From assembly GCA_938027655.1 (NCBI GenBank), contig CALJAP010000085.1, positions 1 to 62,709 of the forward strand: a stretch of DNA of 62,709 bases, read 5' to 3'. Source of the DNA: an uncultured bacterium. GTDB lineage: Bacteria; Armatimonadota; HRBIN16. Under the pieces are notes generated by a model that saw only the letters and a list, made by a program, of their open reading frames with translations, had not been told where the DNA came from and made no database searches. Positions within the stretch are counted from its first letter, which is position 1. The number at the start of each line of letters is the position of its first letter. The translations under genes were made by a program, and so were the position numbers. Of the stretch, positions 8,132 through 57,312 are shown piece by piece.

Positions 8132-11100
8132 ATGATGAAACGACGGCACACGCTGGTGGCATTACTTGGACTATGCTGTCTGACGTGTATGGCACAGAAC
8201 CCTGTGACCAACGGCGGTTTCGAGGTGCTGGACGCGCAGGGACGACCTGTTGACTGGCAACTTCTGGGCGAAACCGTTGCTGTGACCACCGATGCCCATT
8301 CCGGCAAGTTTGCCCTGCGCTTCGAGCGGGGCAGTGGGCGCGATGTGCCGCCCGAAATCGGCTTGAACCGTGAGTGGGCTCCCGACAGCGGGCAGCAGGG
8401 CAGGATGCTTGCCGAGCGTAAAGGGGGTATCCTCTTCTGGTACAAGCTGGTATCCGTCTCGCCGGGCGCGTCGGTGAGCGTTCAGGTTATCCCCATGAGC
8501 GCACGACCATTCGAGGACACCGGTTCCTCCCGCGCCATCTATCAGATACCGCGCCAGCACGCCGGAGACGGTCGCTGGCATCAGGGCAAGCTGGTATATG
8601 ACTTCACCGACAACCCGAAGGTGAAATGGGTACAGGTGGGCGTGCGCCTGACGGGTGGTCCCGCCGTGCTGATTGTGGACGACATGGAGTACGTGGAGCG
8701 CGTCGGGGCGGTGCTACAGTTTGAAAAGATGCATTTCTATCCTGATAAATCCGCCCCGGACAAAGGGGGTATGTTCACGTTCTCTGTCACCAACGCGGGC
8801 GATACCCCTTCTCAACCGGTGCAGGTGGCGGTTCGTGCTCCTGAGGGCTGGCGTGTGCAGCCGTTGCGCGTGCCCCAAGCTCGAGCGGTCGCGCCGGGCG
8901 ACGGGGTCACGTATCGCTGGCAGGTGCAGGGGGTGCTCAAGCCATCCGCGCTGCGCCTTACCGCTACCGATGGCGAGGAGACGACAGAGGAGACCTTTCG
9001 CCTCGTGCCCGGCGTGGAGCTGGAGAGCGTGTTGATGAAGCCGGCGATGGTTGCGCCCGGAGCGACCGCTGAAATCGTGGCAACGGTGCGCAACCGGGGC
9101 AATGCGATTGCTGAAGGGGTACAGTTACGCTGTACGCTTCCCAACGCCTCCGCCCCTGTCGCTTTTCTCTCGAGCAGCGCACAGAAGGCTCCGCCCATCG
9201 CGCCCGGAGGGAAAACGGTGGTGCGCTGGAAGGTGCGTGCAGGTTCCCGATTGGGCGAATGGCAGGTGGATTGCGGTCTGCAAGCGCCGGAGACATTTCC
9301 TCAAACCGCACGAAGCACGCTCATCATCACCGACGCGCTCAAACGACCGGCGCAACCGGTGGTGGGTGCGTTGTGGATGCGACGCGGCTCCGACCGCATG
9401 GTCGGCGAACTGCGCGTGGGCAATCGTGTGGTGGCGCGGATGCCCCATCTGGGCAGTGTGGTGGTGCGGTTGCCCGACGGCTCGGTGCAGAGGTTGTTCC
9501 CGCGATATGGTCTGCCTCGGTACGGACATGGACGAACGCCCCCACGACTATTCACCGGGACCGCTCGCGACCGTGCCGGGGCACGGTGGACCTTCACGCT
9601 CACCGTACAACCGGTGGATTCTCATACCTTGCGTATGGAATACGCCTGCGTTGCCGATAAACCTCGCGATGTGCTGGTATTCGAGGGACCGACTTTGCTG
9701 GTGGGGGACGGCAGCACCGCTGATACCAAGAGCGAGGCGCTGTTGCCCGGACTGGAGTGGTTGACCGCCGACGAGGTGAGCAGCAGCGATTTAGACATCG
9801 CCAAAGACCACCCCGACCGAATACGCTTCGTTCCCCACCCGCATAAAGTGACCATCCCCGTGATGGGGGTAAAGACGCCTGCGGCGGTGGTAGGGCTACT
9901 GTGGAACGTGCATGACCGCTGGGGCAAGGGAGAGGAGCTCCCGCAACCGGTGTTCGCCGTGCCCGACAGACTGAAGGGAACCGCCACGCACCGGTTGGGG
10001 CTGATTGCACCGAACGTACCCGCCGGACTGGGCGAGAACCGGTTGACCGCCGAGAAACCCTTCCGCGTAACGCCCGACGGCTACCTGCGCCTGAGTGCGC
10101 TCGTCGTTGTCAACCCGCAGGCGAAGGACCTGTTGAGCGTGGTGGATACGTGGTTCGCACGTTTTTCCCCCGACCCGCCTCTGCCCGCACCGCAGGGCAG
10201 TGACCTTGAGCAGATAGCGTGGAGCATGAAGGCGTATACCGATTCGCTATGGGTATCGGATGAGCAGGGATGGCTACCATTTCAAGGAGGACCCGCGATA
10301 TGGTCGCAACCGGCGTTTCGTGCGGACTATGTATATGACCTGTTGAAGGCGTTGACCGTTTTGCCGGGTCACCCCGAATCGCCGAAGTGGCGTGCGCTGG
10401 CGGACAAAACACTGCCTCGCATAGGCACGCCTCAGGGGGAGGACATGCAATTTGAATATGGTGATGCAGAGATCAGCCTCTCTTTCCTGCGCGCGCGTGC
10501 GCTGGATCTGATACAGTCGCAAAACCCCGACGGCTCGTGGGGCTTTGACGCCGACCGTCGCGACCAGGGAGTGTTTAAGGGCTACGACTACCACCGGCTG
10601 GGACCGCCCGATGCGGTAGAACTGGGTACCTGCGCTCGTAACGCCTACGAGATACTGCGCTACGCCCGAATCTCCGGTAACGAGGAGGCGTACCGCGCCG
10701 GAGCAAGGACGCTGGAATTCATGCGTCGCTTCACCGTGCCGCGTGCTGCACAGGTGTGGGAAGTTCCCGTGCATACGCCTGATATCCTCGCCGCGGCAGA
10801 CGCAGTAGACGCCTATATCGAGGGTTACTGGTTCAGCGGGGACGGAAGATGGCTGGCAGAAGCGCGTCGTTGGGCGAGGGCAGGACTGCCGTTCGTGTAC
10901 GTATGGAACGCACCGGGAAAGCCGTGGATGCGCTATGGCTCCATTCCCGTTTTTGGATCGAGCTTATACATCGTGAGCTGGTTTGGCAACATCGTGCAGT
11001 GGAACGGTTTGCGCTATGCCTACGCCTTGCTGAAGCTGTGCGAAGCGGACAGGAACGCCCCGCCGCTGTGGAAGCAGGTCGCATTGGGCATCACACGCTG

Positions 11101-31420: not shown

Positions 31421-31897
31421 TCATTCCTCTTTGGGGGTGGGTATCGGTTCTAGGAGCATCTCTTTCGTGTAGATGAAGTCACTGCGGTGGTAATCGGCGA
31501 GTTCATAGTCGTCACGTAACACGATAGCTCCCGTCGGGCACGCCTCTTGGCAGTAACCGCAGAAGATACAGCGCAACATGTTGATCTCATATCGCACTGC
31601 ATACCGCTCGCCGGGCGAGTAGCGGTTTTCATCGCTGTTCTCGGCAGCCTCCACGTAGATGCAACGCGCCGGACAAGCCCCTGCGCACAGCGAACAGCCG
31701 ATGCACCGCTCCAGCCCGTTGTCGTAGCGACGCAGCACGTGCCGCCAGCGCGCGCGTGGATACATCGGACGCTTCTGCTCGGGGTATTGCACGGTAATGG
31801 GTTCATGGAAGGGGGGCTGATGCCGAAAGGTAATGCTCAGTCCCTGAGCCAGCGGTAGCACCGTCTTCACGAATCGCTTGGCAACCTGCGTAATCAT
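31421..31897 (-). CDS. nuoI: NADH-quinone oxidoreductase subunit I
   Basis: [20 protein letters not shown] and [13 protein letters not shown] 2x[4Fe-4S] motifs. Confidence 0.95.
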
Positions 31898-41665: not shown

Positions 41666-44305
41666 ATGTTAGCTCAGGAGTTACGCGAAAAATACCTGCG
41701 GTTCTTTGAGAGCAAAGGACACAGACGGTTTCCTTCAGATAGCCTTGTGCCCAACGACCCGTCGTTGCTGTTCACCAGCGCGGGCATGGTACAGTTCAAG
41801 CCCTACTTCCTCGGGCTGGCAACCCCGCCCCACACACGGGTCACAACGGTGCAGAAATGCCTGCGCACCACCGACATCGAGTCGGTGGGCGACCACTCGC
41901 ATCTCACCTTCTTCGAGATGCTGGGTAACTTCAGCTTCGGCGACTACTTCAAGCGCGAGGCTATCCTGTGGGCGTGGGAGTTCCTCACTGAGTGGCTGCA
42001 TATCTCACCTGACCGCCTGCGCGTTACCATCTACTTGGACGACGACGAGGCGTACGAGGTGTGGAATCGTGAGGTGGGCGTGCCCGACCGCAAAATCTTC
42101 CGCTTCGGTGAGAAGAGCAACTACTGGCCCGCCAACGCCATCTCGGAGGGTCCGAACGGTCCATGTGGTCCCTGTTCGGAAATCTTTTACGATACCCGTC
42201 CCGACCTGCCTCCCACCCCTGACGGTGTGTGGGACGACGTACGCTGGCTGGAAATCTGGAATCTGGTGTTTATGCAGTACGAACGGCACGACGGCGGCAG
42301 ACTCACCCCTCTGCCACGTAAGAATATCGACACGGGCATGGGGCTGGAACGCACCGCCGCCATCCTCGCGGGCAAGGCGAGCGTGTTCGATACCGACCTC
42401 TTTCAACCACTCATTGCGCGCATTGCCGACCTGAGCGGGCACGCCTACAGCGGTAGCGACTCCACAGAAGATGTTGCCTTCCGCCTGATTGCCGACCACA
42501 TCCGCGCTACCACCATGTCCATCGCCGACGGAGTGCTCCCCTCCAACGAGGGGCGTGGTTACGTGATACGGCGACTCCTGCGCCGGGCGATGCTGCGCGG
42601 GCAGAACGTACTGGGCTTTGACCGTCCCTTCCTCGCCGATGTGGCAACAGCGGTGATCGAAACGCTGGGCGAGGTGTATCCCGAGGTGCGCGAGCGACGC
42701 GATTATGTGCTGCGCACCATTCGCAGCGAGGAAGAACGCTTCCGCCAGACCATTCAGGTTGGTTCACAACGGCTGGCGGAGATGCTTGGGGCGTCCGAAG
42801 TGCAGAGGAGCAAGGTACTGCCCGGCGAGCAGGCGTTCATGCTATACGACACCTACGGTTTCCCCCTGGAGCTGACACAGGAGGTCGCCGCCGAGGCGGG
42901 TATCGGGGTCGATGTAGAGGGCTTCCGTCGGGCGATGGAGGAGCAGCGTCGGCGTGCTCGTGAAGCCAGCGGTATTGCCACACAGTTGTTCGCCATCGCG
43001 GGCGACGCTGCCACCGAACTGCAGAAAACGCTTCCGCCGACAAAGTTCCTGGGCTACCGGCAGCATGAGGCGGAAGCGAAGGTGCTCGCCATTATCCGGC
43101 AGGGAGAACCTGCCACTTTTGCCAGCGAGGGCGAAGAAGTGGAACTGGTGCTAGACCAGACCCCCTTCTACGCTGAGGCAGGCGGTCAGGTGGGCGACAC
43201 CGGATGGATACAGGGAAAAGACTTCCGGTTTGAAGTCAAAGATACCCAGAAGGTGGGCGACCTGTACCTGCACATCGGCATGGTGACGCGCGGACGTGTG
43301 GAGGTGGAAGCCCCCGTTTCCGCCCGCATCGACACGCAACGTCGCTGGCACATCATGCGCAACCACACCGCTACGCATTTGCTACATGCGGCGTTACGCC
43401 AGGTGCTGGGTTCGCATGTGCATCAAGCTGGTTCGCTGGTAGCACCCGACCGCCTGCGTTTCGACTTCACCCATACCAGCGCGATGAGCGAGGAGCAAAT
43501 CGCCGAGGTGGAACGTCTGGTGAACGAGCGTATCCTAGAAGACAAGCCGGTCATGGTACATTGGGACGTGCCGCTTGCGGAGGCGCGGGCGCGCGGCGCG
43601 ATGGCGCTGTTCGGGGAGAAGTACGGCGACACCGTGCGCATGATCGAGGTGCCCGGCGTGAGCCTGGAATTGTGCGGTGGCACGCATCTGGAACGCACCT
43701 CGCAGGTCGGGCTGTTCAAGATAGTGTCGGAGGAAAGTGTGGCGGCGGGCGTGCGCCGCGTCGAGGCGGTCACGGGTTGGGGCGCGTATCAGCTGATGCG
43801 CCAGCAACAGGAGCTGCTGGAGGAAGCGGCGGCGCGTCTGAAATGCGCGGTGTCCGACATCCCTGCGGCGATCGAACGTCTGCAGGCGCAGCGTCAGGAG
43901 ATGGAGAGGCAGATTCAGCAGCTACGCACCGGTGCGGCTGCCCGCTCCATGCAGTTCGAACCCGTCGAGCTGGCGGGGTTGCAAGTGGTTACCGGACGAG
44001 CCGACGGTGCAGACGCGCAGACGTTGGCTTCTCTGGCGGACCAGGCGGCACAGAAGGCATCAGTGGACCTGGTGGTGCTCGCTGCAGCAACCGACGGCAA
44101 GGCGCTGTTCGTGGCGAAGGCGAAACCCTCGGCGGTGGCAAAGGGGGTTCATGCCGGCAACCTGGTGCGCGAGCTGGCGAAAATCAGCGGGGGCGGCGGC
44201 GGCGGGCGTGCCGAGTTCGCTCAGGCAGGCGGGCGCGATGCTAGCAAAATCCCGCAAGCTTTGCAGCAGTTGCCCCTCCTGCTACAGCAGATGGTGGGAA
44301 GATAG
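41666..44305 (+). CDS. alaS: Alanine--tRNA ligase
   Basis: LLFTSAGMVQFK, FFEMLGNFSFGDYFK, IDTGMGLER, NHTATHLLH, ELCGGTH, GGGGG..AQAGG. Confidence 0.98.
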   Translation: MLAQELREKYLRFFESKGHRRFPSDSLVPNDPSLLFTSAGMVQFKPYFLGLATPPHTRVTTVQKCLRTTDIESVGDHSHLTFFEMLGNFSFGDYFKREAILWAWEFLTEWLHISPDRLRVTIYLDDDEAYEVWNREVGVPDRKIFRFGEKSNYWPANAISEGPNGPCGPCSEIFYDTRPDLPPTPDGVWDDVRWLEIWNLVFMQYERHDGGRLTPLPRKNIDTGMGLERTAAILAGKASVFDTDLFQPLIARIADLSGHAYSGSDSTEDVAFRLIADHIRATTMSIADGVLPSNEGRGYVIRRLLRRAMLRGQNVLGFDRPFLADVATAVIETLGEVYPEVRERRDYVLRTIRSEEERFRQTIQVGSQRLAEMLGASEVQRSKVLPGEQAFMLYDTYGFPLELTQEVAAEAGIGVDVEGFRRAMEEQRRRAREASGIATQLFAIAGDAATELQKTLPPTKFLGYRQHEAEAKVLAIIRQGEPATFASEGEEVELVLDQTPFYAEAGGQVGDTGWIQGKDFRFEVKDTQKVGDLYLHIGMVTRGRVEVEAPVSARIDTQRRWHIMRNHTATHLLHAALRQVLGSHVHQAGSLVAPDRLRFDFTHTSAMSEEQIAEVERLVNERILEDKPVMVHWDVPLAEARARGAMALFGEKYGDTVRMIEVPGVSLELCGGTHLERTSQVGLFKIVSEESVAAGVRRVEAVTGWGAYQLMRQQQELLEEAAARLKCAVSDIPAAIERLQAQRQEMERQIQQLRTGAAARSMQFEPVELAGLQVVTGRADGADAQTLASLADQAAQKASVDLVVLAAATDGKALFVAKAKPSAVAKGVHAGNLVRELAKISGGGGGGRAEFAQAGGRDASKIPQALQQLPLLLQQMVGR

Positions 44306-44353
44306 CAAAAATCGAAATGTTTTTTTGCTACAATCCTGCAAAAACCGCCTCAG

Positions 44354-44369
44354 TGGTACGATTCTTGCT
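44354..44369 (+). promoter_or_regulatory. sigma54 (-24/-12) promoter, copy 1
   Basis: TGGTACGATTCTTGCT fits TGGYAC-N5-TTGCW with exact GG-N10-GC spacing. Intergenic. Confidence 0.75.
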
Positions 44370-44379
44370 ATATATATGG

Positions 44380-44592
44380 AATGGAAACCCCGCAAGGCGG
44401 GGTGGGGTCAGGCACACCGCCGGTAACAATGACCGACGGTCTGTGCTGATAGGGCGCGAAAGCACTGGGTTTCGCGCCGGTGCGCCTGGACGCGCTTGGC
44501 GTCGGGCTGCGAAAGGGTGAAACATCACCCTTTCGCCTAACGGTGCACTCGCAATGCCGCCGGATGTTTCCATCCGGCGGTCTTCCCTTTTC
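44380..44592 (+). ncRNA. Candidate structured non-coding RNA (~210 nt), family not recognised
   Basis: Bounded by a sigma54 promoter and an intrinsic terminator. At least 5 hairpins, including perfect 9-bp (44453-44478) and 12-bp (44509-44536) stems. No credible ORF or RBS. Confidence 0.6.
44556..44592 (+). terminator. Rho-independent terminator
   Basis: GCCGCCGGATG-TTTC-CATCCGGCGGT followed by CTTCCCTTTTC. Confidence 0.75.
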
Positions 44593-45740
44593 TATACATG
44601 TACGTTGAACAGCACGCCGATTAGATAGGTCAACACACCCACCACAAAAGCGATGGCAGTCATCTCCAGCCCGCTGACCCACCACTTGCGCGTAGTCACC
44701 AGACTCTTAGCTGCCCCCACCGCGAAGTGCGCCAGCACGCTTACGAACGCCGACCAGAATACCGCCATCCACCCCCGTGCGAAGAAGAACGGCAGCACCG
44801 GTATCAACCCACCAACGGCAGTGGATACCATCGACGACAGAAGCGAGACCCACGGATTGGGGAAGCTGGCTTCGGATAGTCCCAGCTCCTCATGCGCCAT
44901 CAGGCGCAGCATCTGGTCAGGCTTCTCTGCCAGCCGACGCGCCATTGCCTCCGCTTCCTCTTCGGAAAAACCCTTGAGCTGGTAGAACAGGCTCATCTCC
45001 TCAATCTCTTCTTCCGGGTTCTCGTGAAGCTCTCCGCGCTCGCGGGCAAGCTCCGCCTCGTACACCTCACGCTCTGACTTCGCTGCCAGAAAGGCGCCGG
45101 AGCCCATCGATAGCGCGCTGGCCAAAGTGCCCACCAGCCCAGCAATCAGCACCGTCTGGTGTCCAGCCGCGCTGCCCGCGCTGTAGCCCGCCATACCGGA
45201 TACAATGCCGAATACCGCGCCTAACCCATCGTTGATGCCGTAGATGGCATCGCCTATCCACGAGCCGCCGCGCACGTGCCAGTGTTCCCGCCGCAGGATG
45301 CGCTCCACCGGATGCTCCGTGCCCGAGGCGGAGTACAAAGCGTGTGTCATGTGAGCATGTTCCTCTTCATCTCGCATCACCCGCTGCGCGAGTTCTGCGG
45401 TACGTTCGTCGCCCATGTGCTGCATCTGCAGGTAGCGTGCCACTGCCTCGTCTTCATGTTCCTCCATCCGTCGCAGCACCATCTCAGGGCTTGCCAGATA
45501 CGCCTGCCAGCCGAACAGCGGTTTCACCTTACGAACCTGCGGCGGTTTGCCTCCCAACTCTACCAGTCGCTGGCTCCACTCCTCTGCGTGGCGGTCTTCC
45601 ACTTGCGCCAGCTGCTCCAGTATCTTCTTTTTGCGCGGGTCTTTCTCGCGTTTCGCCAGCAGGCGGTAGGTCTCTGCGCTGGACAGCTCGCCCCGAATCA
45701 CCTCTTCAATTGAAGCCTTCAATTTTGCATCGGCACCCAT
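44592..45740 (-). CDS. Ferritin/rubrerythrin-like domain fused to VIT1/CCC1 metal transporter
   Basis: Start re-called at 45740 (AAGGAG). Di-iron ExxH motifs (EDRH, DEEEH). DAIYGINDGL, SALSMGSG.FL, HEELG VIT1 motifs. Confidence 0.88.
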   Translation of the reverse strand: MGADAKLKASIEEVIRGELSSAETYRLLAKREKDPRKKKILEQLAQVEDRHAEEWSQRLVELGGKPPQVRKVKPLFGWQAYLASPEMVLRRMEEHEDEAVARYLQMQHMGDERTAELAQRVMRDEEEHAHMTHALYSASGTEHPVERILRREHWHVRGGSWIGDAIYGINDGLGAVFGIVSGMAGYSAGSAAGHQTVLIAGLVGTLASALSMGSGAFLAAKSEREVYEAELARERGELHENPEEEIEEMSLFYQLKGFSEEEAEAMARRLAEKPDQMLRLMAHEELGLSEASFPNPWVSLLSSMVSTAVGGLIPVLPFFFARGWMAVFWSAFVSVLAHFAVGAAKSLVTTRKWWVSGLEMTAIAFVVGVLTYLIGVLFNVHV

Positions 45741-45761
45741 CGAACCGTCTTTTCTCCTTTT

Positions 45762-45780
45762 AATAATGATTCGCGTTATT
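45762..45780. promoter_or_regulatory. Fur-family operator-like site
   Basis: AATAATGATTCGCGTTATT matches GATAATGATAATCATTATC at 13/19 positions. It lies between the minus-strand TGxTATAAT (-10 at 45781-45786) and the RBS. Confidence 0.55.
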
Positions 45781-45837
45781 ATTATATCACATCCCCTGTG
45801 AAAAAGGGAACAGAGGATAGAAGAGTGGCTCTTTCTG

Positions 45838-45867
45838 TTGACAATCTCCTGTTTAAACCTGTACAAT
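45838..45867 (+). promoter_or_regulatory. sigma70-type promoter for the DUF2905-queA operon
   Basis: TTGACA-N18-TACAAT. Confidence 0.65.
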
Positions 45868-45891
45868 TTGCACGCAGGAGGATGAGAACAG

Positions 45892-46128
45892 ATGCTGGCA
45901 TCGTTTGGCAAAGGGTTGATTCTTCTCGGTGTGATGCTTGTCCTGCTCGGTGCGCTCATGTGGGCGATGGAGCGGTTCACCGGCGCACGGGGCGGTGGTT
46001 TGTTGCCCGGCGACCTCGTGTGGCGTAAAGGCAACTTCACTATCGGCATCTTTCTGGGAACCAGCATCGCCCTCAGCATCCTGCTAACGGTTATTCTCTG
46101 GGTGATTGGATGGTTGAGCAGACGATAG
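45892..46128 (+). CDS. DUF2905 family small membrane protein
   Basis: GKGLILLG...LPGDLVW.KGNFT...LGTSIALSILLT. Typical position upstream of queA. Confidence 0.85.
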   Translation: MLASFGKGLILLGVMLVLLGALMWAMERFTGARGGGLLPGDLVWRKGNFTIGIFLGTSIALSILLTVILWVIGWLSRR

Positions 46129-47144
46129 AAGAGGCAGTACGGCTGCTGGAAGAGTACCGTTACGACCTGCCGGAAGAGCGCATCGCGCAACAGCCGGTGG
46201 AGCCGCGCGATAGCTCGCGCTTGCTGGTGCTGCACCGTGACGCCGGCAGCCGCGAGCACCGCATCTTCCGCGACATTGTGCAATATCTCCACCCGGGCGA
46301 TACACTGGTACTGAACAACACGCGCGTGAGCGCGCGTCGCCTACGCGGTTTCAAGAGTACCGGCGCACAGGTAGAGGCATTGCTGCTGCGCGAGGTTCAA
46401 CCGGGTGTGTGGGAAGCGATTGTGCGCCCGGGCAGGCGATTGCTGGTGGGCAGTCAGGTGCTTCTGGAGGGACACCTGAGGGCGGAAGTGATTGCCTGTC
46501 TGCCACAGGGGATGCGCTTGCTACGCTTTGAGCACCCTCAGTTGGTACATCACCAGCCGCTGGGCGAGATACCGTTGCCCCCTTACATCCGGCACAAGCT
46601 GGAGAACGAGGAGCGTTATCAGACGGTATACGCAGCGGTTAACGGCTCGGCGGCAGCTCCGACAGCAGGGCTACATTTCACCCCGGAACTGCTACAACGC
46701 ATCCGCGAGATGGGCGTGCGTATCGTGACCATCACCCTGCACGTGGGTATCGCCACCTTCCGCCATCCCGAGCCAGAGCAGCTGGTGCAGGGACGCCTGC
46801 ACCCGGAGTGGTACACCATCTCCGAAGAAGCTGCCGAAGTCATCAACAGTACGCCCGGGCGTATCGTGGCGGTGGGCACAACCTGTGTGCGTGCGCTGGA
46901 GAGCGCGGCGTCAGGCGAACGGCGGGTAGAGGCACGGCACGGCAGCACCGACCTGTTCATTCTGCCGGGCTTCCGGTTCCGGGTTGTGGAAGCGCTCGTG
47001 ACGAACTTTCACCTGCCTGCTTCCACGCCGCTCTTGCTCACCTGCGCCTTCGCAGGCAAAGAAAGAGTTTTCGAAGCCTATCGCGAAGCGTTGGCGATGG
47101 GCTACCGATTCCTGAGTTTTGGAGACGCCATGCTGATACTTTAG
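46110..47144 (+). CDS. queA: S-adenosylmethionine:tRNA ribosyltransferase-isomerase
   Basis: LPEERIAQQP, PLPPYI, RYQTVYA, AAPTAGLHFT, TNFHLP, YRFLSFGDAM. Confidence 0.97.
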   Translation: MVEQTIEEAVRLLEEYRYDLPEERIAQQPVEPRDSSRLLVLHRDAGSREHRIFRDIVQYLHPGDTLVLNNTRVSARRLRGFKSTGAQVEALLLREVQPGVWEAIVRPGRRLLVGSQVLLEGHLRAEVIACLPQGMRLLRFEHPQLVHHQPLGEIPLPPYIRHKLENEERYQTVYAAVNGSAAAPTAGLHFTPELLQRIREMGVRIVTITLHVGIATFRHPEPEQLVQGRLHPEWYTISEEAAEVINSTPGRIVAVGTTCVRALESAASGERRVEARHGSTDLFILPGFRFRVVEALVTNFHLPASTPLLLTCAFAGKERVFEAYREALAMGYRFLSFGDAMLIL

Positions 47145-47156
47145 GGGGATTGCACC

Positions 47157-48050
47157 GTGAGAACGTTAGAGGACTGGTTCAAATATCTGGAACAGCAGTA
47201 CGTGGACGAGAAAGCGCAAAAGGAGTCTGGGCCACCACAAGAGCAAACGCCGCAGAGACAGCAACCGGCGCAACCAGAGCCGATGACCAGCCGGGTGACA
47301 GCACCTTCTGTTCAGGAACAGAGGCAGCAGGAGGTACCCAAAGGGCGTCCGTCTGCTGTGCCGCCCTCACTGGAGCAGGTGCAGGTGGTGAACGTATCCG
47401 TGCCCGACCCTGCGGATTATATCTTCACACTGCGCCGCCCGACGAGCGAGCCTGCCACGCCTGCAGATGCCGAAGAGGAGACGAAGCGGGAAAAGCGCAC
47501 GGAGGCAGTATCGGAGGCAAAACAACCTGATGAGCAGATGGCGACGCCGGCAGAGCCGGAGCAGGTAACGTCTCCTGCCGCGGAGTCGATTGCCGAAGAG
47601 ACACCACCTGAGGAGGCTCCATCCGAAGCCGTCGTCGGGCAAACAGAACGTGCTCAGCGTGCAAAGCCCGTAAAACGTGCTCCTTATACCCGCAGCGTGC
47701 GTCCGGTTCCACCGCCTCAGTCTATTGAAGACCTCTGGAAACGTGTGCCGAAGCATGTGCGCCTGCTGGTGGAACTCGGCGATGACGAGGTGACGCAAAA
47801 GTACTACGACCGACAGTTTAAGGAGAGCCGACAGGAGCTGGTGGAACGCCTGCTGAACCCGTCGCTGACGCTGGAGGATACCGCCCGCCTGCTGGGGGTG
47901 TGTCCGACGACGGTGCGCCGCTACACCGAGCGCGGGCTGCTGAACCACTATCGCACGCCCGGCAACCAGAGGCGGTTCCGCCTGTCCGACGTTATCGCCT
48001 TCCTGGAGGCGAGGCAGCAAGCGCAGGAAGCCCGACGACGAAAGCGGTAA
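47157..48050 (+). CDS. MerR/excisionase-type HTH protein with long disordered N-terminal region
   Basis: C-terminal LTLEDTARLLGVCPTTVRRYTERGLL..YRTPGNQRRFRLSDV. About 170-aa E/P/Q/A-rich linker. Confidence 0.85.
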   Translation: MRTLEDWFKYLEQQYVDEKAQKESGPPQEQTPQRQQPAQPEPMTSRVTAPSVQEQRQQEVPKGRPSAVPPSLEQVQVVNVSVPDPADYIFTLRRPTSEPATPADAEEETKREKRTEAVSEAKQPDEQMATPAEPEQVTSPAAESIAEETPPEEAPSEAVVGQTERAQRAKPVKRAPYTRSVRPVPPPQSIEDLWKRVPKHVRLLVELGDDEVTQKYYDRQFKESRQELVERLLNPSLTLEDTARLLGVCPTTVRRYTERGLLNHYRTPGNQRRFRLSDVIAFLEARQQAQEARRRKR

Positions 48051-52160: not shown

Positions 52161-52188
52161 TAAAGACCCGTGTTTGCATTGCCGATAC
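52161..52188 (+). promoter_or_regulatory. Candidate sigma28 (FliA/SigD) promoter
   Basis: TAAA-N16-GCCGATAC in the 67-nt gap upstream of the kinase. Consensus is TAAA-N15/16-GCCGATA. Confidence 0.55.
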
Positions 52189-52227
52189 CACAGTGTGCAC
52201 CGTTCAGAAATAAGAAGGCTGATTGCG

Positions 52228-54873
52228 ATGGACAACCATTCGTATACTGTCGAGACGCATTACGCTTTTATCCAGCGGCTACTTCATCAGATTGCATCGC
52301 GCACGGCGGACGCGGTGAGTGAGGCGCTGCTGGCGGAGGCTCAACAGTACTTTGTCGCCGTGCAGGCAGCGTTGTGGACGGTAGACGCCAGTACACACCA
52401 GGCGGTGCTGGTGAGCGTTGCGCCTTACCCCTTCTCCGACGACCACCTGCCCTTCGATGTGCTCATGGAGGCGGTGACAAAAGCAGCAAAAAAGGACGGT
52501 CCCTGTTGCGTCGAGCTGGGTGAACGGTATGGGTGGTTGCATTCTTTCAAGATAGAGCCTTACCGCGCGGTGTACGTGGTTAGCCTTGTCACCGAGGAGC
52601 CTTTGCCGGAATGCTTGCAGGAGGTGCTGCAGACATGGCTCATTCTTCTGCGCACCTCGGTTGCGCAGCTGCAGGCGCAGGCTCACCTCCGCCGGGTGCA
52701 AAAGCACAACGATAAGCGTCTGCAGGAGGTCACCGCGCTCTACGAGATCGGGCAGGCGATGGAGGGTGGCGACCTGCAGGTTCTGCTGGACATGATTACC
52801 CGCAAAGCGGCAGAGGTCATGGAAGCACAGGCGTGCTCGCTGATGCTTCTGGATGAGGACGGTCAAACGCTGGTCATTCGCTCCAGCTACGGCTTACCTA
52901 ATACGGTTATCGAGCAAACGCGCGTGCCGTGGGGACAGGGGATTGCGGGCAGGGTGGTCGCCAGCGGTCAAGCCATGTTGATTACCGACCCGCGTAAAGA
53001 CCCTCGCCTCGCCGGTGAAGACGTGCCGTACCGCGAGGACATCCAGGCGTCGCTCTGTGTGCCGTTGCGGGACAGCCATGGCGGGGTAATTGGGGTACTG
53101 AATATCCATCGGCGCAAGCCTGCTCCACTCTTTACCCAGCAGGATATGCGCCTGTTTAGCGTGTTCGCCATGCAGGCGGCGTCCGTTATCAAGTACGCAC
53201 AGATCCGCCGTGCCCTCATGTATCGGGTGCATGAGCTTTCGGTACTCTCCGAACTGAGCGCGGCGGTAAACTCCACGCTGGAGCTGGAACAGATACTGCA
53301 GCAAACCGCAGAGGGCATTGTGGAAACCGTGCGGTTCGACCGCTGCGCGATATTTCTGCTGGACGAGTCGGGTAAGCTGGTAACGCCCCGCGCGGTGCGT
53401 GGTTATCGCCCCGAAACACTGGGTAGCACGCCGGTTCGCGTGGCGGACGGCGTCATCGGGTTAGCGGTACGCAATAAGGAGCTGGTGCTGGTAGAGAACG
53501 CCCAGCAATCCAGCCAGCCCGCGCGAGGGTTTGGCAGGATGCTGGGCACCAATGCGTTTCTGGTCGCGCCCATTCTGGCACGCAACCGCGTAATTGGAGT
53601 GGTGGTTGCCGACAACAAACCCTCCGGGCGCCCTATTGACCGTGCTAATATCCAGCTGCTCACCACCTTCATCAACCAGGCGGGCATGGCTATCGAGAAC
53701 GCCCGTCTGTATCACGACCTGGACCGGCGATTTAACGAACTGCATAACCTGTGGGAGTACACGCGCAACCTGCTCAGCAGCATTGGTGTGGGCGTTGTGA
53801 GCATCGATAGAGAGGAGATTGTACTGACCTGGAACGATGCCGCCGAACGCATCACCACTGTACCTCACGAGAAAGCGCTGGGATACAAACTGGAGGACCT
53901 GTTTGCCCACTTTTTCCTGCCGGAAGAAGAGAAGAACATGCTTCTGGAGATTATCCGCTTCCCCTTCCAGACGGGCGAAAGACACTCGCGTTTCAAATGT
54001 GCTCTGCATCCCTATCAGCGCGGTGAGATGTACTTCAATTTTGAAAGTTCTCCCCTGCGTGCTCCCAACGGTTCCGTTCAGGGTGTGGTGTTTATTTTTG
54101 AAGACATCACGCACGAAGTGCGGATGGAGATGGAGGTGCAGCGCATCGGGCAGCTGGCAGCGGTTGGGCAGCTCGCCTCTACCATCGCCCACGAGTTGCG
54201 CAACCCGCTCAGCTCCATCCGTGCTTCCGCCCAGCACCTGCGCGGCGAATACGCCAGCAACCCCGAGCTGTGTGAGTTTCTGGACATTATCATCAACGAG
54301 GTGGATGTGCTGAACACCAAAGCCACCGAGTTCCTGCGGTTCGCCCGTCCTGTGGAACCGGTATTCCAGGAGGTGAACCTGTCCGACCTGATGAGCAGTA
54401 CCGTCCAGTTCATGCACTCCTATATCGAGGAGCAGGGGGTGCAGGTGGAGGTGGACGTTTCCGTGCCGTTTACCATCAAGGCGGACCCAAACCAGCTGAA
54501 AGAAGCTCTTCGCAATCTGATTATCAACGCGGTGCAAGCCATGCCGGAAGGTGGAACCTTGTCGCTTATCGCCACACCCGCCCCAGGCGACACGGTAAAT
54601 ATTATCGTCAAGGACACGGGAGTTGGGATACCGCCCGAAAATATGGACCGTATCTTTACGCCGTTTTACACTACCAAAGCCAAAGGGTCGGGGCTGGGGC
54701 TGGCAAACGTCCAGAAGATTGTGGAAAGCCACGGCGGTACTATTCGCGTGCACAGCCGGGTGGGTGAAGGAACCGAGATGCGTATCACTCTGCCGGTGCA
54801 CCCGGTGCGTCGCATCCGCCGCATTGAGCTGGGAGACGATGACAATCTGCGCACCAGAATACCAGACCTCTAA
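52228..54873 (+). CDS. Cytoplasmic GAF-GAF-PAS sensor histidine kinase (NtrB/AtoS-like)
   Basis: Two GAF repeats, PAS (WNDAAERIT), H-box AHELRNPL, N/G/F boxes NLIINAVQA, DTGVGI, FTPFYTTK, GSGLGL. No obvious TM helix. Confidence 0.92.
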   Translation: MDNHSYTVETHYAFIQRLLHQIASRTADAVSEALLAEAQQYFVAVQAALWTVDASTHQAVLVSVAPYPFSDDHLPFDVLMEAVTKAAKKDGPCCVELGERYGWLHSFKIEPYRAVYVVSLVTEEPLPECLQEVLQTWLILLRTSVAQLQAQAHLRRVQKHNDKRLQEVTALYEIGQAMEGGDLQVLLDMITRKAAEVMEAQACSLMLLDEDGQTLVIRSSYGLPNTVIEQTRVPWGQGIAGRVVASGQAMLITDPRKDPRLAGEDVPYREDIQASLCVPLRDSHGGVIGVLNIHRRKPAPLFTQQDMRLFSVFAMQAASVIKYAQIRRALMYRVHELSVLSELSAAVNSTLELEQILQQTAEGIVETVRFDRCAIFLLDESGKLVTPRAVRGYRPETLGSTPVRVADGVIGLAVRNKELVLVENAQQSSQPARGFGRMLGTNAFLVAPILARNRVIGVVVADNKPSGRPIDRANIQLLTTFINQAGMAIENARLYHDLDRRFNELHNLWEYTRNLLSSIGVGVVSIDREEIVLTWNDAAERITTVPHEKALGYKLEDLFAHFFLPEEEKNMLLEIIRFPFQTGERHSRFKCALHPYQRGEMYFNFESSPLRAPNGSVQGVVFIFEDITHEVRMEMEVQRIGQLAAVGQLASTIAHELRNPLSSIRASAQHLRGEYASNPELCEFLDIIINEVDVLNTKATEFLRFARPVEPVFQEVNLSDLMSSTVQFMHSYIEEQGVQVEVDVSVPFTIKADPNQLKEALRNLIINAVQAMPEGGTLSLIATPAPGDTVNIIVKDTGVGIPPENMDRIFTPFYTTKAKGSGLGLANVQKIVESHGGTIRVHSRVGEGTEMRITLPVHPVRRIRRIELGDDDNLRTRIPDL

Positions 54874-54901: not shown

Positions 54902-56122
54902 ATGACAATGAAGGTAAAAACAGCGACAGAGAAACCAACACCGTTGACCCTGCTTATCGTGGAAGACCAGGCCAGTCACCGTCGTGTACTGGAGGCGCAC
55001 TTCTCTAAGCAATACGATGTGCTCACCGCCGAGCACGGTCAGCGTGCGCTGGAAATCGCTTCACAGCGGCCTGTTGACCTGTTGATTGTCGATCTGATTC
55101 TGCCCGGTGCGATGAACGGAATGGAGGTGCTGCAAAAGATTCGCGAGATGTATCCGGACGTAATGGCTATCATGATTACCGCGCATCCTACCGTTCGCAC
55201 AGCGGTACAGGCGATGAAAGATGGCGCGATAGACTATATCGAAAAGCCTATCGACCTAGACGAGCTGAAAACAATGGTGGACAGAGCAGCCGAGCAGTAT
55301 CGCCGCAAGCAGGAGGAAGCTCTACTCCAGCCTCAACACAGCGGCACTCTCGATCTGCAAGGTATTGTGGGCACCAGCGAGGCGATGCAGAAAGTGTATA
55401 GGATGATTGCGAAGGTCGCGGCGAGTAATGCAACCGTACTGATTCGCGGTGAAAGCGGTACCGGAAAGGAGCTGGTCGCCAAAGCCATTCATCGCAATAG
55501 CAATCGGGCGAACGGGCCGTTTATCGCCGTGTCCTGCGCCGCGCTACCGGAGACCTTGCTCGAAAGCGAGCTGTTCGGGCACGAGAGGAACGCTTTCACC
55601 GGCGCAACGTCACAAAAGCCGGGCCGGTTCGAACTGGCACACAAGGGCACCCTGTTCCTTGATGAAGTGGCAGAGATTAGTCCTGCTATTCAGGTGAAAT
55701 TGCTGCGCGTGCTGCAGGAACAAGAGTTCGAGCGGCTGGGTGGCACCAAGCCGATTAAAGTGGATGTACGCCTGCTCGCCGCCACGAACAAAAACCTAAA
55801 GGAGATGGTGAACAACAAAACCTTCCGCGATGACCTGTACTATCGCCTGCACGTCATCGAGATTTACCTGCCTCCCTTGCGCGAACGAACGGAAGACATT
55901 CCGCTTCTGGTGGAACACTTTCTGAATCATTACGGCAGGGAGAACGGCAAACGGCTCAAATCCGTTGCCCCCGAAGCGATGCACATCTTGAGGAACTACC
56001 ACTGGCCCGGCAACGTGCGCGAGCTGGAAAACGTCATCGAACGGGCGGTTGTGCTCGCTGACAGAGACACAGAACTGCTTACGCCCGACCTCTTGCCGGA
56101 TTCTATCACCAAGACAGTGTAA
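54902..56122 (+). CDS. sigma54-dependent response regulator (REC + AAA+), lacking the C-terminal Fis-type HTH
   Basis: REC (IVED, D, T, KP), GESGTGKE, ESELFGH, NAFTGA, LFLDEV, FRDDLYYRL, WPGNVRELEN. Stop 21 aa after ERAVVL. 406 aa. Confidence 0.92.
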   Translation: MTMKVKTATEKPTPLTLLIVEDQASHRRVLEAHFSKQYDVLTAEHGQRALEIASQRPVDLLIVDLILPGAMNGMEVLQKIREMYPDVMAIMITAHPTVRTAVQAMKDGAIDYIEKPIDLDELKTMVDRAAEQYRRKQEEALLQPQHSGTLDLQGIVGTSEAMQKVYRMIAKVAASNATVLIRGESGTGKELVAKAIHRNSNRANGPFIAVSCAALPETLLESELFGHERNAFTGATSQKPGRFELAHKGTLFLDEVAEISPAIQVKLLRVLQEQEFERLGGTKPIKVDVRLLAATNKNLKEMVNNKTFRDDLYYRLHVIEIYLPPLRERTEDIPLLVEHFLNHYGRENGKRLKSVAPEAMHILRNYHWPGNVRELENVIERAVVLADRDTELLTPDLLPDSITKTV

Positions 56123-56165
56123 ATCGCTTAGATTTTTTTGCAAATACCGGCAAAAACGCGCCGAA

Positions 56166-56181
56166 TGGTACGGAACTTGCA
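56166..56181 (+). promoter_or_regulatory. sigma54 (-24/-12) promoter, copy 2
   Basis: TGGTACGGAACTTGCA fits TGGYAC-N5-TTGCW. Lies directly downstream of the activator gene and upstream of the REC-PilZ gene. Confidence 0.8.
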
Positions 56182-56298
56182 GCTATATATGGACGGATAT
56201 GCTTTTGCAAGGATACCTGTTAAGAATGCAGGAATTGTATATTATCCTTAAAATCGCAACAGATGCCTGGTCCATGCTGAAAGGGGAAGTCTGATCCC

Positions 56299-57312
56299 AT
56301 GCCCAGAGTGCTGATAGCGGACGATGAGACGAACCTGTGTAAGGTGCTGGCTGCAAGGTTGCAGCAAAGTGGATTGCAGTGCGTGATTGCGCATGACGGT
56401 ATGCAGGCGCTGGAACTCCTCCGCTCACAACCCATCGATGTGGCGGTGCTGGACGTACGGCTCCCGCGCAAGAACGGTGTGCAGATACTGCGCGAAATCC
56501 GGCGAGACAATCCGCAGCTCCCTTGCGTGCTCATCACTGCTTTCGAGGACATCGAGTTACACGAGGAAGCGGCGCGTCTGAGAGCGAATGCTGTTTTGCA
56601 GAAGCCGTTTGACCTGGAAGCGTTCACCGAGCTTATCTGGAGGGAGATCAGCGCCCCTGCCTCCACGACGGGAGCGCCCATGCTGCTGCAGAACGGCGAG
56701 AAGGTGATTGTGGACATCCGGCGAGGCGAGTGGTCGTATACCTATGCACCGCGCGTCATTTCGCAAGACGACCGCATACTGGAGATCGAACCGCCGCTGG
56801 CAGTAGTGGATACAGAGGTGTTGTCGCAAGGGGTAGCTATTGTTCAGTTTACGCGTGGGGATGGCGTATACCAGTTTCGTTCGCGCATCGAGTTGGCTAC
56901 CACTCCCCGACAAGCGTTGTATCTGCGCAAGCCGGTCGCCATTCGTCGCCTGCAACGCCGCAAGCACCCACGCATTGCGGAAGAGGGACAGGTCAGCATC
57001 GTGTTTTCGTTCCGGGAGGAACGTGAGGCTGCTCCACTGACGCTTACGGGCGAACTGTACGACCTGAGTCACGGTGGTTTCTCCGTGTTGTTGTCGCAGG
57101 CGCCGCCCGTTGGCGAAGAGGTCTCCTTCCAGATGGCGCTACCCGAGGCAAACCTTACCCTCATCGGGCAAGCGCGGGTGGTGCATGTGGGCGGGATGAT
57201 TGCCGACAGGGTACCGGCGGTTTATCACGCAGGGCTGAGGTTCACCCGACTCGCGCCCGCCATGCGGCAAGCACTGGCGGAATGGGTGGAGAGGCTGTTG
57301 AAACAGGCGTGA
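56299..57312 (+). CDS. Response regulator receiver fused to YcgR-like PilZN + PilZ c-di-GMP-binding domains
   Basis: REC (IADDE, LDVRLP, ITA, QKP). PilZ motifs QRRKHPR (RxxxR) and DLSHGG (DxSxxG), GLRF. Confidence 0.85.
   Translation: MPRVLIADDETNLCKVLAARLQQSGLQCVIAHDGMQALELLRSQPIDVAVLDVRLPRKNGVQILREIRRDNPQLPCVLITAFEDIELHEEAARLRANAVLQKPFDLEAFTELIWREISAPASTTGAPMLLQNGEKVIVDIRRGEWSYTYAPRVISQDDRILEIEPPLAVVDTEVLSQGVAIVQFTRGDGVYQFRSRIELATTPRQALYLRKPVAIRRLQRRKHPRIAEEGQVSIVFSFREEREAAPLTLTGELYDLSHGGFSVLLSQAPPVGEEVSFQMALPEANLTLIGQARVVHVGGMIADRVPAVYHAGLRFTRLAPAMRQALAEWVERLLKQA

Follow-up and report, generated by a model that had tools for sequence, protein, structure and literature searches.

Sigma-54-type promoters with phased A/T tracts and an activator lacking a DNA-binding domain in a predicted surface regulon of an uncultured Armatimonadota bacterium

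The window analyzed here, a stretch of 62,709 nucleotides from an uncultured bacterium of the phylum Armatimonadota (lineage HRBIN16; contig CALJAP010000085.1 of assembly GCA_938027655.1), carries two similar composite sites in which A/T tracts precede a sigma-54-type (-24/-12) promoter core. Site 1 lies directly 3' of the alaS stop codon (alaS 41666-44305). Site 2 lies directly 3' of the stop codon of a gene for a sigma-54 activator and 107 nt upstream of a gene for a REC-PilZ response regulator. The window corresponds to contig C85 of the draft genome (G000; 3,527,397 bases, 219 contigs, 59% G+C). The features in question were as follows.

44307..44344, plus strand: upstream A/T-tract module of site 1 (A5 at 44307-44311; AAAT and then T7 at 44320-44326; A5 at 44340-44344)
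44354..44368, plus strand: sigma-54 core of site 1, TGGTACGATTCTTGC (GG at -24, GC at -12; 25.8 bits by position weight matrix, PWM)
44378..44594, plus strand: predicted structured small RNA of about 215 nt, the putative transcript of site 1, with no conserved open reading frame (ORF) and no Rfam family
52174..54873, plus strand: sensor histidine kinase, GAF-GAF-PAS-HisKA-HATPase (start codon uncertain)
54903..56122, plus strand: sigma-54 activator, REC + AAA+ (NAFTGA loop); the protein stops directly behind the AAA+ lid and has no DNA-binding domain
56133..56156, plus strand: upstream module of site 2 (T7 at 56133-56139; A5 at 56152-56156)
56166..56180, plus strand: sigma-54 core of site 2, TGGTACGGAACTTGC (24.3 bits by PWM)
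56299..57312, plus strand: REC-PilZ response regulator, the gene predicted to be driven by site 2, with a 107-nt leader

Read letter by letter, copy 1 consists of AAATCG (44309-44314), N5, TTTTTTTGC (44320-44328), N9, GCAAAAA (44338-44344), N9, TGGTACG-N4-TTGC (44354-44368) and TATATATGGA (44371-44380). Copy 2 consists of AAATCG (56121-56126), N6, TTTTTTTGC (56133-56141), N8, GCAAAAA (56150-56156), N9, TGGTACG-N4-TTGC (56166-56180) and TATATATGGA (56184-56193); its AAAT at 56121-56124 overlaps the activator stop codon. Every element of the two composite motifs reported by a first-pass annotation of this DNA was found in its place, and so were the differing spacers (N5/N9 versus N6/N8). The inverted repeat TTTTTGC..GCAAAAA described there (44322-44344 at site 1, 56135-56156 at site 2) indeed ends 9 nt before the TGG of the -24 element in both copies. 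Pairwise alignment of the two sites (111 nt each, 112 columns) gave 78% mean column identity, and the flanks were unrelated. When both strands of the whole genome were searched, the composite TTTTGC-N6-12-GCAAAA-N6-12-TGG-N9-TGC matched only sites 1 and 2, as did the decamer TATATATGGA. The resemblance of the two sites is real and far beyond chance. An AT-rich stretch (44369-44377) directly follows the core of site 1, and transcription is predicted to start near 44378-44381 at site 1 and near 56190-56193 at site 2.

Both cores match the -24/-12 consensus, with GG and GC doublets 10 bp apart within TGGCACG-N4-TTGCW. The gene rpoN, whose absence had been flagged as a threat to a sigma-54 assignment, is present in the draft genome (PF04552 match on C46, E = 5.7e-33). 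With rpoN encoded and both cores fitting the consensus, the sequence identifies sites 1 and 2 as sigma-54 promoters, as had been proposed, and their transcription would depend on sigma-54. The strict pattern TGGTACG-N4-TTGC had 16 matches in the genome, 14 of which shared, as judged by eye, upstream A/T tracts, an AT-rich -10..-1 region and, close to the predicted start, (G/A)TGGA. A looser core seed had 37 matches; 17 of these carried at least 7 A/T among the 10 positions after TTGC, and a PWM built from these 17 set about 20 sites apart from the background. From the PWM list, 19 sites were kept by hand for the counts of tracts and curvature. Those left out by eye (C92:3025, C59:13781, C106:26129, C77:5392, C21:52713 and everything lower) had a GC-rich -10..-1 region, a non-consensus -12 element or an intragenic position. 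Sites 1 and 2 are two of about 19-20 stereotyped promoters that share TGGYACGAWTCTTGCA, an AT-rich -10..-1 region and GTGGA near +1. The full composite is confined to the two window sites, and the architecture of core plus A/T tracts is wider, reaching about 19 promoters in this genome.

Behind the 19 curated promoters, a same-strand ORF was found in 16 cases and no ORF in two; in C197 the contig end was too near. The predicted products, one of them behind a weaker site, were as follows.

C13: Wza-like exporter (Wza/SLBB), then Wzz/P-loop kinase
C187: XrtA-like exosortase, then EpsI
C156 and C21: PEP-CTERM proteins
C122 and C115: LVIVD / dockerin / CarboxypepD_reg secreted proteins
C183: S8 subtilase
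C90: DUF1559 prepilin-like protein
C45: CspA
C172: RHS-associated protein
C77 (weaker site, TGGAAC): 164-aa ORF, then an rpoD-like sigma-70 gene
C85, site 2: REC-PilZ
C85, site 1, and C43: no ORF

By this gene content, the putative regulon would serve the building of the cell surface, with exosortase/EpsI, PEP-CTERM proteins, polysaccharide export and secreted proteases, and would also include CspA, REC-PilZ and a small RNA. The scan of the genome and its relatives that the first-pass annotation had called for returned further core matches and conservation, and a gene of the cyclic di-GMP (c-di-GMP) type, REC-PilZ at site 2, was among the targets. The weaker C77 site, TGGAACGATTCTTGC (about 31553-31567, minus strand), has no A/T tracts and a predicted bend of 22.7 degrees. 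On C116, a sigma-54 promoter precedes a gene of 239 aa, with a convergent tmRNA gene (L008, 1354-1712, minus strand) about 230 nt downstream.

The two promoters were conserved in 12 genomes of the genus, so that a lack of conservation in relatives, also named beforehand as an objection, was not observed. The core of site 1 was kept at 12 of 12 orthologous loci, and the whole of site 1 with its transcript in 12 of the 13 genus genomes. The REC-PilZ orthologue (71-92% protein identity), found in 12 genus genomes, was preceded in all of them by a site 2 promoter. Among these orthologues, the core TGG(T/C)ACGGAACTTGCA was almost invariant and the block GC-AAAAACGCGCCGA well kept; the spacer between T-run and A-run was variable. 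The linkage of the two sites over about 11.7 kb was retained in several genus genomes. The core pattern TGGYACGRWWCTTGC occurred 5-23 times per genome in the 13 genus genomes (reversed control, 0-1), 16 times in G036, a member of a different family in the phylum, and 0-3 times in each of 27 other relatives searched. All 13 genus genomes encode rpoN; three genomes of genus g2 lack it and carry one core-motif match in all.

The combination of core and A/T-tract upstream architecture recurred in all 12 other genus genomes searched. The regulon of the related genome G009 mirrors that of G000, including both non-coding loci, and five of 11 newly tested products in G009 had weak C-terminal PEP-CTERM matches, two of them above the Pfam cut-off. 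The outgroup genome G036 has the same core, an activator without a helix-turn-helix (HTH) adjoining a REC-PilZ gene, and similar secreted-protein genes, yet it is without the tracts. Three paralogous secreted-protein genes of G036 (L151, L158 and L164) share the promoter and a conserved leader (GGAACAAATCGGCACGCC...), which indicates that promoter and gene were duplicated together.

The activator, whose start at ATG 54903 is probable from a GGGGG Shine-Dalgarno-like run, gave the one strong PF00158 match in G000 (E = 6.4e-75), the other four being weak generic AAA+ matches. Its best NCBIfam matches (AtoC, NtrC and PrsR), all below cut-off, end at profile positions 371-392 of 445-463, showing that the C-terminal HTH is missing. 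HTH_8 had no match anywhere in G000. The description of the activator as lacking an HTH was borne out by its end right after the AAA+ lid and by this genome-wide result. Since the activator has no DNA-binding domain, and hence no C-terminal HTH for which an enhancer could be the site, the upstream element cannot be its enhancer. One strong PF00158 match was found in each of 12 of the 13 genus genomes, the exception being a genome that is 77% complete, and the activator ended 178-187 residues after ELFGHE at 12 of 12 genus loci and in G036. The sigma-54-contacting loop, canonically GAFTGA, reads NAFTGA in 10 of the 12 genus activators, SAFTGA and NAYTGA once each, and GSFTGA in G036. In the sister genus g3, a canonical activator with HTH_8 adjoins rpoN. 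A wider search with the activator for related loci yielded generic members of the NtrC family only, at 44-63% identity, and these were left out of the comparison. A separate Fis-type partner for the activator was considered and rejected: HTH_8 is absent from G000, and the genus relatives have weak matches only, in open frames of about 110 aa located elsewhere. The GAF/PAS histidine kinase is presumed to be the partner of the activator.

The upstream element was analyzed in 19 sites of G000, 20 of G009 and 16 of G036, with positions counted from the T of TGG. A T-run started at -35..-32 in 14/19, 15/20 and 1/16 sites, respectively, and an A-run ended at -9/-10 in 10/19, 12/20 and 0/16. At site 1, the spacing of both runs from TGG is that of most other sites. 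Further A-runs lay at -48..-43 and -37..-33, each followed by a T-run, giving A4-5T4-5 blocks about 10 bp apart; sites without the A-run at -14..-9 often carry one at -26..-18. At five sites (C43, C183, L169, L171 and L184) an A-run stands in place of the T-run, so that orientation appears irrelevant, as expected for readout of the minor groove or of shape. The inverted repeat consists of the T-run and the A-run plus two flanking G/C pairs. Both runs were present in 17 of 39 sites, and the arms extended inward by complementarity of at least 2 bp in 3 of these 17, compared with 20% in a cross-paired null; these three comprise sites 1 and 2 themselves and, in G009, the orthologue of site 1. A sequence-specific dyad common to co-regulated promoters, as an enhancer would provide, was not found by these counts, and a specific palindrome was rejected as a general feature. 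The proposal that the repeat is a site for a separate DNA-binding cofactor or repressor did not hold in the form of a specific palindrome, and as a hairpin the repeat is weak.

The same module was found at promoters of another class. The whole G000 genome contains 26 A4+T4+ blocks, of which 6 precede sigma-54 cores (block end to TGG, 27-30 or 38 nt). Eleven of the 20 others precede sigma-70-like -35/-10 elements (at least 5/6 and at least 4/6 matches, respectively, on one or both strands), compared with 36 of 3000 random positions (1.2%). The distances from block to -35 cluster at 11, 20-23 and 32-33 nt, in steps of one helical turn. Several promoters, for example on C32, C94, C162 and C61, carry GCAAAAA(T/C)GC immediately ahead of TTGACA, with the A/T block again separated by 14 nt. 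On C6, C32, C38, C61, C84, C89, C94, C108, C113, C162, C197 and others, A4T4 blocks stand 11, about 21 or about 32 nt upstream of sigma-70-type promoters of good quality (TTGACA-N17-TAnnnT). On C6, divergent promoters on the two strands share one block. Close to contig ends, four near-identical copies (C17, C73, C181 and C195) stand before TTGCAT-N17-TAGAAT and may belong to repeated RNA operons.

What was observed at sigma-70-type promoters is the occurrence of the module, not its function. Its presence there indicates that the element is neither specific to the activator nor defining for the regulon. The first-pass claim that the element defines a regulon holds for the core promoters, which mark one by gene content mirrored in G009, and fails for the upstream element. 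The genome encodes the C-terminal domain of the polymerase alpha subunit (alpha-CTD), and the positions of the A/T tracts (about -40 to -60 and beyond), like their A-then-T order, match those of upstream (UP) elements. UP elements are described as alternating A- and T-tracts, with an "A-tract followed by T-tract" typical distally and an A-run on the proximal side, and are read through the shape of the groove instead of the bases (PMC3326320).

Curvature was predicted by a wedge model, for which, as a sanity check, A4T4 repeats came out curved and T4A4 repeats straight. The median maximum bend over 31 bp was 50.5 degrees in G000, 53.5 in G009 and 23 in G036, with controls at 26 (shuffled sites) and 27 degrees (AT-matched genomic 70-mers); sites 1 and 2 reached 54.7 and 55.1 degrees. 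The direction of the bend in the frame of the core was concentrated, with R = 0.93 in G000 and 0.90 in G009 (shuffle mean about 0.3, maxima 0.80 and 0.65). According to the model, the tracts would bend DNA by about 50-65 degrees, and the direction of this bend would be constant with respect to the core. Of the earlier idea of an A-tract bending element that gives specificity to the activator, the bend is retained as a wedge-model prediction, and the specificity is not, as the module also stands at sigma-70-type promoters.

The putative transcript of site 1 ends with a strong intrinsic terminator (hairpin 44556-44581, T-rich tail), and VIT1/ferritin (44592-46292), the gene that follows, is convergent. 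The transcript has a single candidate start codon, at which one orthologue reads ATG-TAG. A consensus fold from 12 orthologues has 68 pairs, 26 of them with compensatory changes. Alignment cells were paired in 95% of cases, against 37-51% when the partners were slid; doubly changed pairs numbered 26 against 4-10 when slid, and none of 500 shuffles reached the covariation score. A covariance model found one copy in 12 of the 13 genus genomes and, at E <= 1e-3, nothing in 27 of 28 other relatives, with one marginal match of 29.6 bits. A known RNA family was rejected, as Rfam gave no match at gathering thresholds and the best permissive matches scored 8.6-16.7 bits against thresholds of 37-110. 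Invariant stretches were GCGCCUGGACGCGC..GCGUCGGGCUGCG and CGCCUAACGGUGCA. Site 1 appears to be the promoter of a new, genus-specific structured small RNA that is supported by covariation and would be expressed from it. As a guess, this RNA might be a base-pairing regulator acting through an unpaired CCUAAC. A role as a CsrA sponge was set aside, since the invariant GGA lies within a predicted stem, although CsrA is encoded.

Sigma-54-dependent small RNAs include Qrr of Vibrio and GlmY of Escherichia coli. As with these, the only recognizable promoter of the site 1 RNA is of the -24/-12 type and the activator is of the response-regulator type; unlike them, the RNA has no Rfam match, is larger than Qrr at about 215 nt with at least six helices, and is confined to one genus. 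A second sigma-54 promoter without an ORF lies on C43 (core 8355-8369, minus strand; locus L007, about 3120-3370, minus strand) and also occurs in G009 (L171). About 230 nt follow this promoter, then a GC hairpin with a T-run and a convergent gene, which makes the locus a candidate for a second sigma-54-dependent small RNA.

The leader of the REC-PilZ gene (56193-56298) contains a genus-conserved stretch, CCTGTTAAGAATGCAGGAATTGTAT, and a hairpin, CCTGTTAAGAATGCAGG, at 56216-56232 with a 5-bp stem and a T-rich tail, which may be an attenuator or a protein-binding site. Several GGA motifs extend up to the Shine-Dalgarno region (AAAGGGGA), and CsrA is encoded on C205. Between both promoters of the window, a gene at 47157-48050 (plus strand) encodes a protein of 297 aa whose only recognizable domain is a C-terminal HTH_17/MerR-type HTH; no link of this protein to sites 1 and 2 was found.

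Taken together, we consider it probable, at roughly 60%, that sites 1 and 2 are sigma-54 promoters of one global regulon that is served by an enhancer-less activator and an UP-like curved upstream module. In this mechanism, the GAF/PAS kinase would phosphorylate the single enhancer-binding-type activator of the genome, and the activator, having no DNA-binding domain, would act from solution on promoter-bound sigma-54 polymerase without any enhancer. As the activator cannot bind DNA, specificity would reside in the DNA that binds polymerase, namely in the near-perfect core (TGGYACGAWTCTTGCA), the easily melted AT-rich -10..-1 region and the conserved GTGGA start. The A4-5T4-5 blocks about 54-74 nt upstream of the start, with the A5 run at about -40..-36, would form a curved, UP-element-like module to which the alpha C-terminal domains bind and/or by which DNA is wrapped onto polymerase, and would raise occupancy of the closed complex. 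The module would be a general promoter accessory, used at sigma-70-type promoters as well, rather than an operator for the activator or for a dedicated cofactor. Site 1 would yield the small RNA of about 215 nt, and site 2 the REC-PilZ response regulator of the c-di-GMP type.

Several observations weigh against this interpretation. Among 153 strict sigma-70-like matches, an adjacent A-run was found in 11 and both elements in 6, so that the module marks just a subset of promoters, and its distance to the predicted start is about 3-4 bp shorter at sigma-54 than at sigma-70 promoters. Because G036 has the same core and an HTH-less activator but no tracts, the tracts are, judged by this comparison, an add-on that enhancer-less activation does not require. 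Orthologues of sites 1 and 2 in some species keep the complementarity of the arms with changed letters, for example TTTTCGCG..CGCGAAAA and TTTTTTGCCCC..GGGGCAAAAA, which may point to a local palindrome at this pair of sites. Curvature was calculated with a model that has been sanity-checked only. Finally, the promoters include paralogues and the genus genomes are kin, so the counts and R values overstate independence.

The hint of a palindrome bears on the possibility that T-run and A-run form an operator for a dedicated dimeric cofactor or repressor that gates or aids the HTH-less activator, as BosR does at Borrelia rpoS. Both window copies have perfect 7-bp arm symmetry, with complementarity kept in some orthologues, and the A-run ends at a fixed 9 nt before TGG. 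BosR is also documented as a case in which an Rrp2/sigma-54 promoter can require a further protein that binds DNA (PMC3037356). This explanation is nevertheless unlikely, given that arm extension beyond the A/T runs does not exceed its null, that A-runs replace T-runs at five sites, that the same module precedes sigma-70-type promoters and is missing from G036, and that no candidate protein was identified. A global nucleoid protein that bends or bridges DNA at the A4T4/A-run module in place of alpha-CTD, as a lineage-specific substitute for HU/IHF, is somewhat less improbable, though still doubtful. PF00216 (HU/IHF) was not found in any of the 18 genomes of family f1 (G000-G017), two single-contig ones included, and was found in 11 other genomes of the phylum, among them the tract-less G036. 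Such an absence is unusual for bacteria and may be linked to cis-encoded DNA curvature. The helical phasing of the module at both promoter classes would suit such a protein. On the other side, no protein of this kind was identified, large intrinsic curvature is predicted without one, the HU contrast rests on one outgroup genome, and the tract grammar fits the UP-element description (PMC3326320).

Two further explanations were weighed. The inverted repeats begin 15-20 nt after a stop codon, as would be expected if they were transcript hairpins (terminators or processing sites) of alaS and the activator gene that merely abut the promoters. The RNA fold of the repeat is weak (-5 kcal/mol, z = -1.07) and is equalled by 24 of 200 shuffles, the minimum-energy fold of copy 2 does not use the repeat, no T-run follows the stem on either strand, and most sister promoters have no stem at all. 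Terminator and promoter scans called no terminator-like or sigma-70-like site at the inverted repeats, and the hairpin reading was rejected as extremely improbable. It is slightly less implausible, but still very unlikely, that a promoter cassette has spread through the genome by being copied together with its genes, the tracts being functionless passengers. Several promoters of paralogous genes are indeed alike far beyond the core (L168/L173/L179 in G009, C197/C88 in G000). Against this, sites 1 and 2 differ in their spacers and in their flanks, which are unrelated; tract positions persist across the genus orthologues while the spacers between them drift; and unrelated sigma-70-type promoters carry the module.

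The combination of an enhancer-less sigma-54 surface regulon, an UP-like curved module and a genus-specific small RNA appears, from the sequence analysis, to be new, each part being of a known kind. FlgR of Helicobacter and Campylobacter is enhancer-independent. Like FlgR and CtcC of Chlamydia, the activator described here is a REC-AAA+ protein without an HTH, is paired with a kinase and is the only or main activator of a small sigma-54 regulon. CtcC, which "lacks a DNA-binding domain", most resembles AtoC (PMC7482065), and AtoC is also the best NCBIfam match of the present activator. The present system differs from both in its phylum, in a regulon of surface polysaccharide, exosortase and PEP-CTERM functions rather than flagella or developmental genes, in the NAFTGA loop instead of GAFTGA, and in promoters with phased A/T tracts.

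A further parallel is offered by the PrsK/PrsR/PrsT system, in which PEP-CTERM genes, mostly single-gene units, stand behind a sigma-54 "motif 2"; PrsR is a Fis-type DNA-binding regulator of the NtrC type with an upstream motif 1, and the motifs are reported in Proteobacteria only (Haft et al., 2006; PMC1569441). The likeness lies in two-component control of the NtrC type and in PEP-CTERM genes (C156, C21) and exosortase with EpsI (C187) behind sigma-54 promoters. Unlike PrsR (TIGR02915), the activator has no HTH and, at 414.7 bits, stays below the cut-off of 502.6, its alignment stopping at profile position 374 of 445; unlike PrsK (TIGR02916), the kinase scores 103.9 bits against a cut-off of 300 and matches in the catalytic core only.

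UP-like action is known at the sigma-54 promoter Pu, and at nifLA and Pu curved DNA or IHF bends deliver an enhancer-bound activator to polymerase. The phased A-tract bend predicted here likewise lies immediately upstream of the -24/-12 core, but there is no DNA-bound activator to deliver. As in the UP elements of sigma-70 and extracytoplasmic function (ECF) promoters, the tracts lie at about -40 to -70 with A-then-T blocks and a proximal A-run, tolerate either orientation and occur at promoters of different sigma factors; unlike UP elements, they precede -24/-12 promoters. Sigma-54 promoters are treated separately in an account of core promoter structure (PMC3326320). A search of the accessible literature on sigma-54 in Armatimonadota found nothing relevant, and the main text of a 2025 survey of sigma-54 regulons (PMC12316311) does not contain "Armatimonad", "exosortase", "PEP-CTERM", "UP element" or "A-tract".

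Transcription by sigma-54 is "enhancer-dependent" in textbooks, and to our knowledge few natural systems depend on a sole activator that is unable to bind DNA, most of them known from pathogens. The genus described here provides a comparative case from an uncultivated environmental group, with one activator, about 20 near-identical promoters per genome and 13 species. It makes approachable the question of how an enhancer-less activator obtains promoter firing that is both sufficient and selective, and whether occupancy encoded in cis, through core strength, UP-like contacts and curvature, can replace an enhancer. Two further products are the new structured small RNA and a map of the regulon that can serve in the annotation of these genomes. 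The surface/biofilm regulon would extend the link between PEP-CTERM and sigma-54 beyond Proteobacteria, and the module would be a promoter accessory common to sigma-54 and sigma-70 promoters. Tentatively, it is possible that in this family, in whose 18 genomes no HU/IHF homologue was found, the bending of promoter DNA has been hard-wired in cis and that sigma-54 acts as a one-kinase, one-activator, enhancer-less switch for the surface program. About 20 promoters would then be recognized purely by a near-perfect core and a phase-locked curved UP-like module, and the small RNA and the PilZ response regulator would form a downstream regulatory layer of the exosortase/PEP-CTERM surface program.

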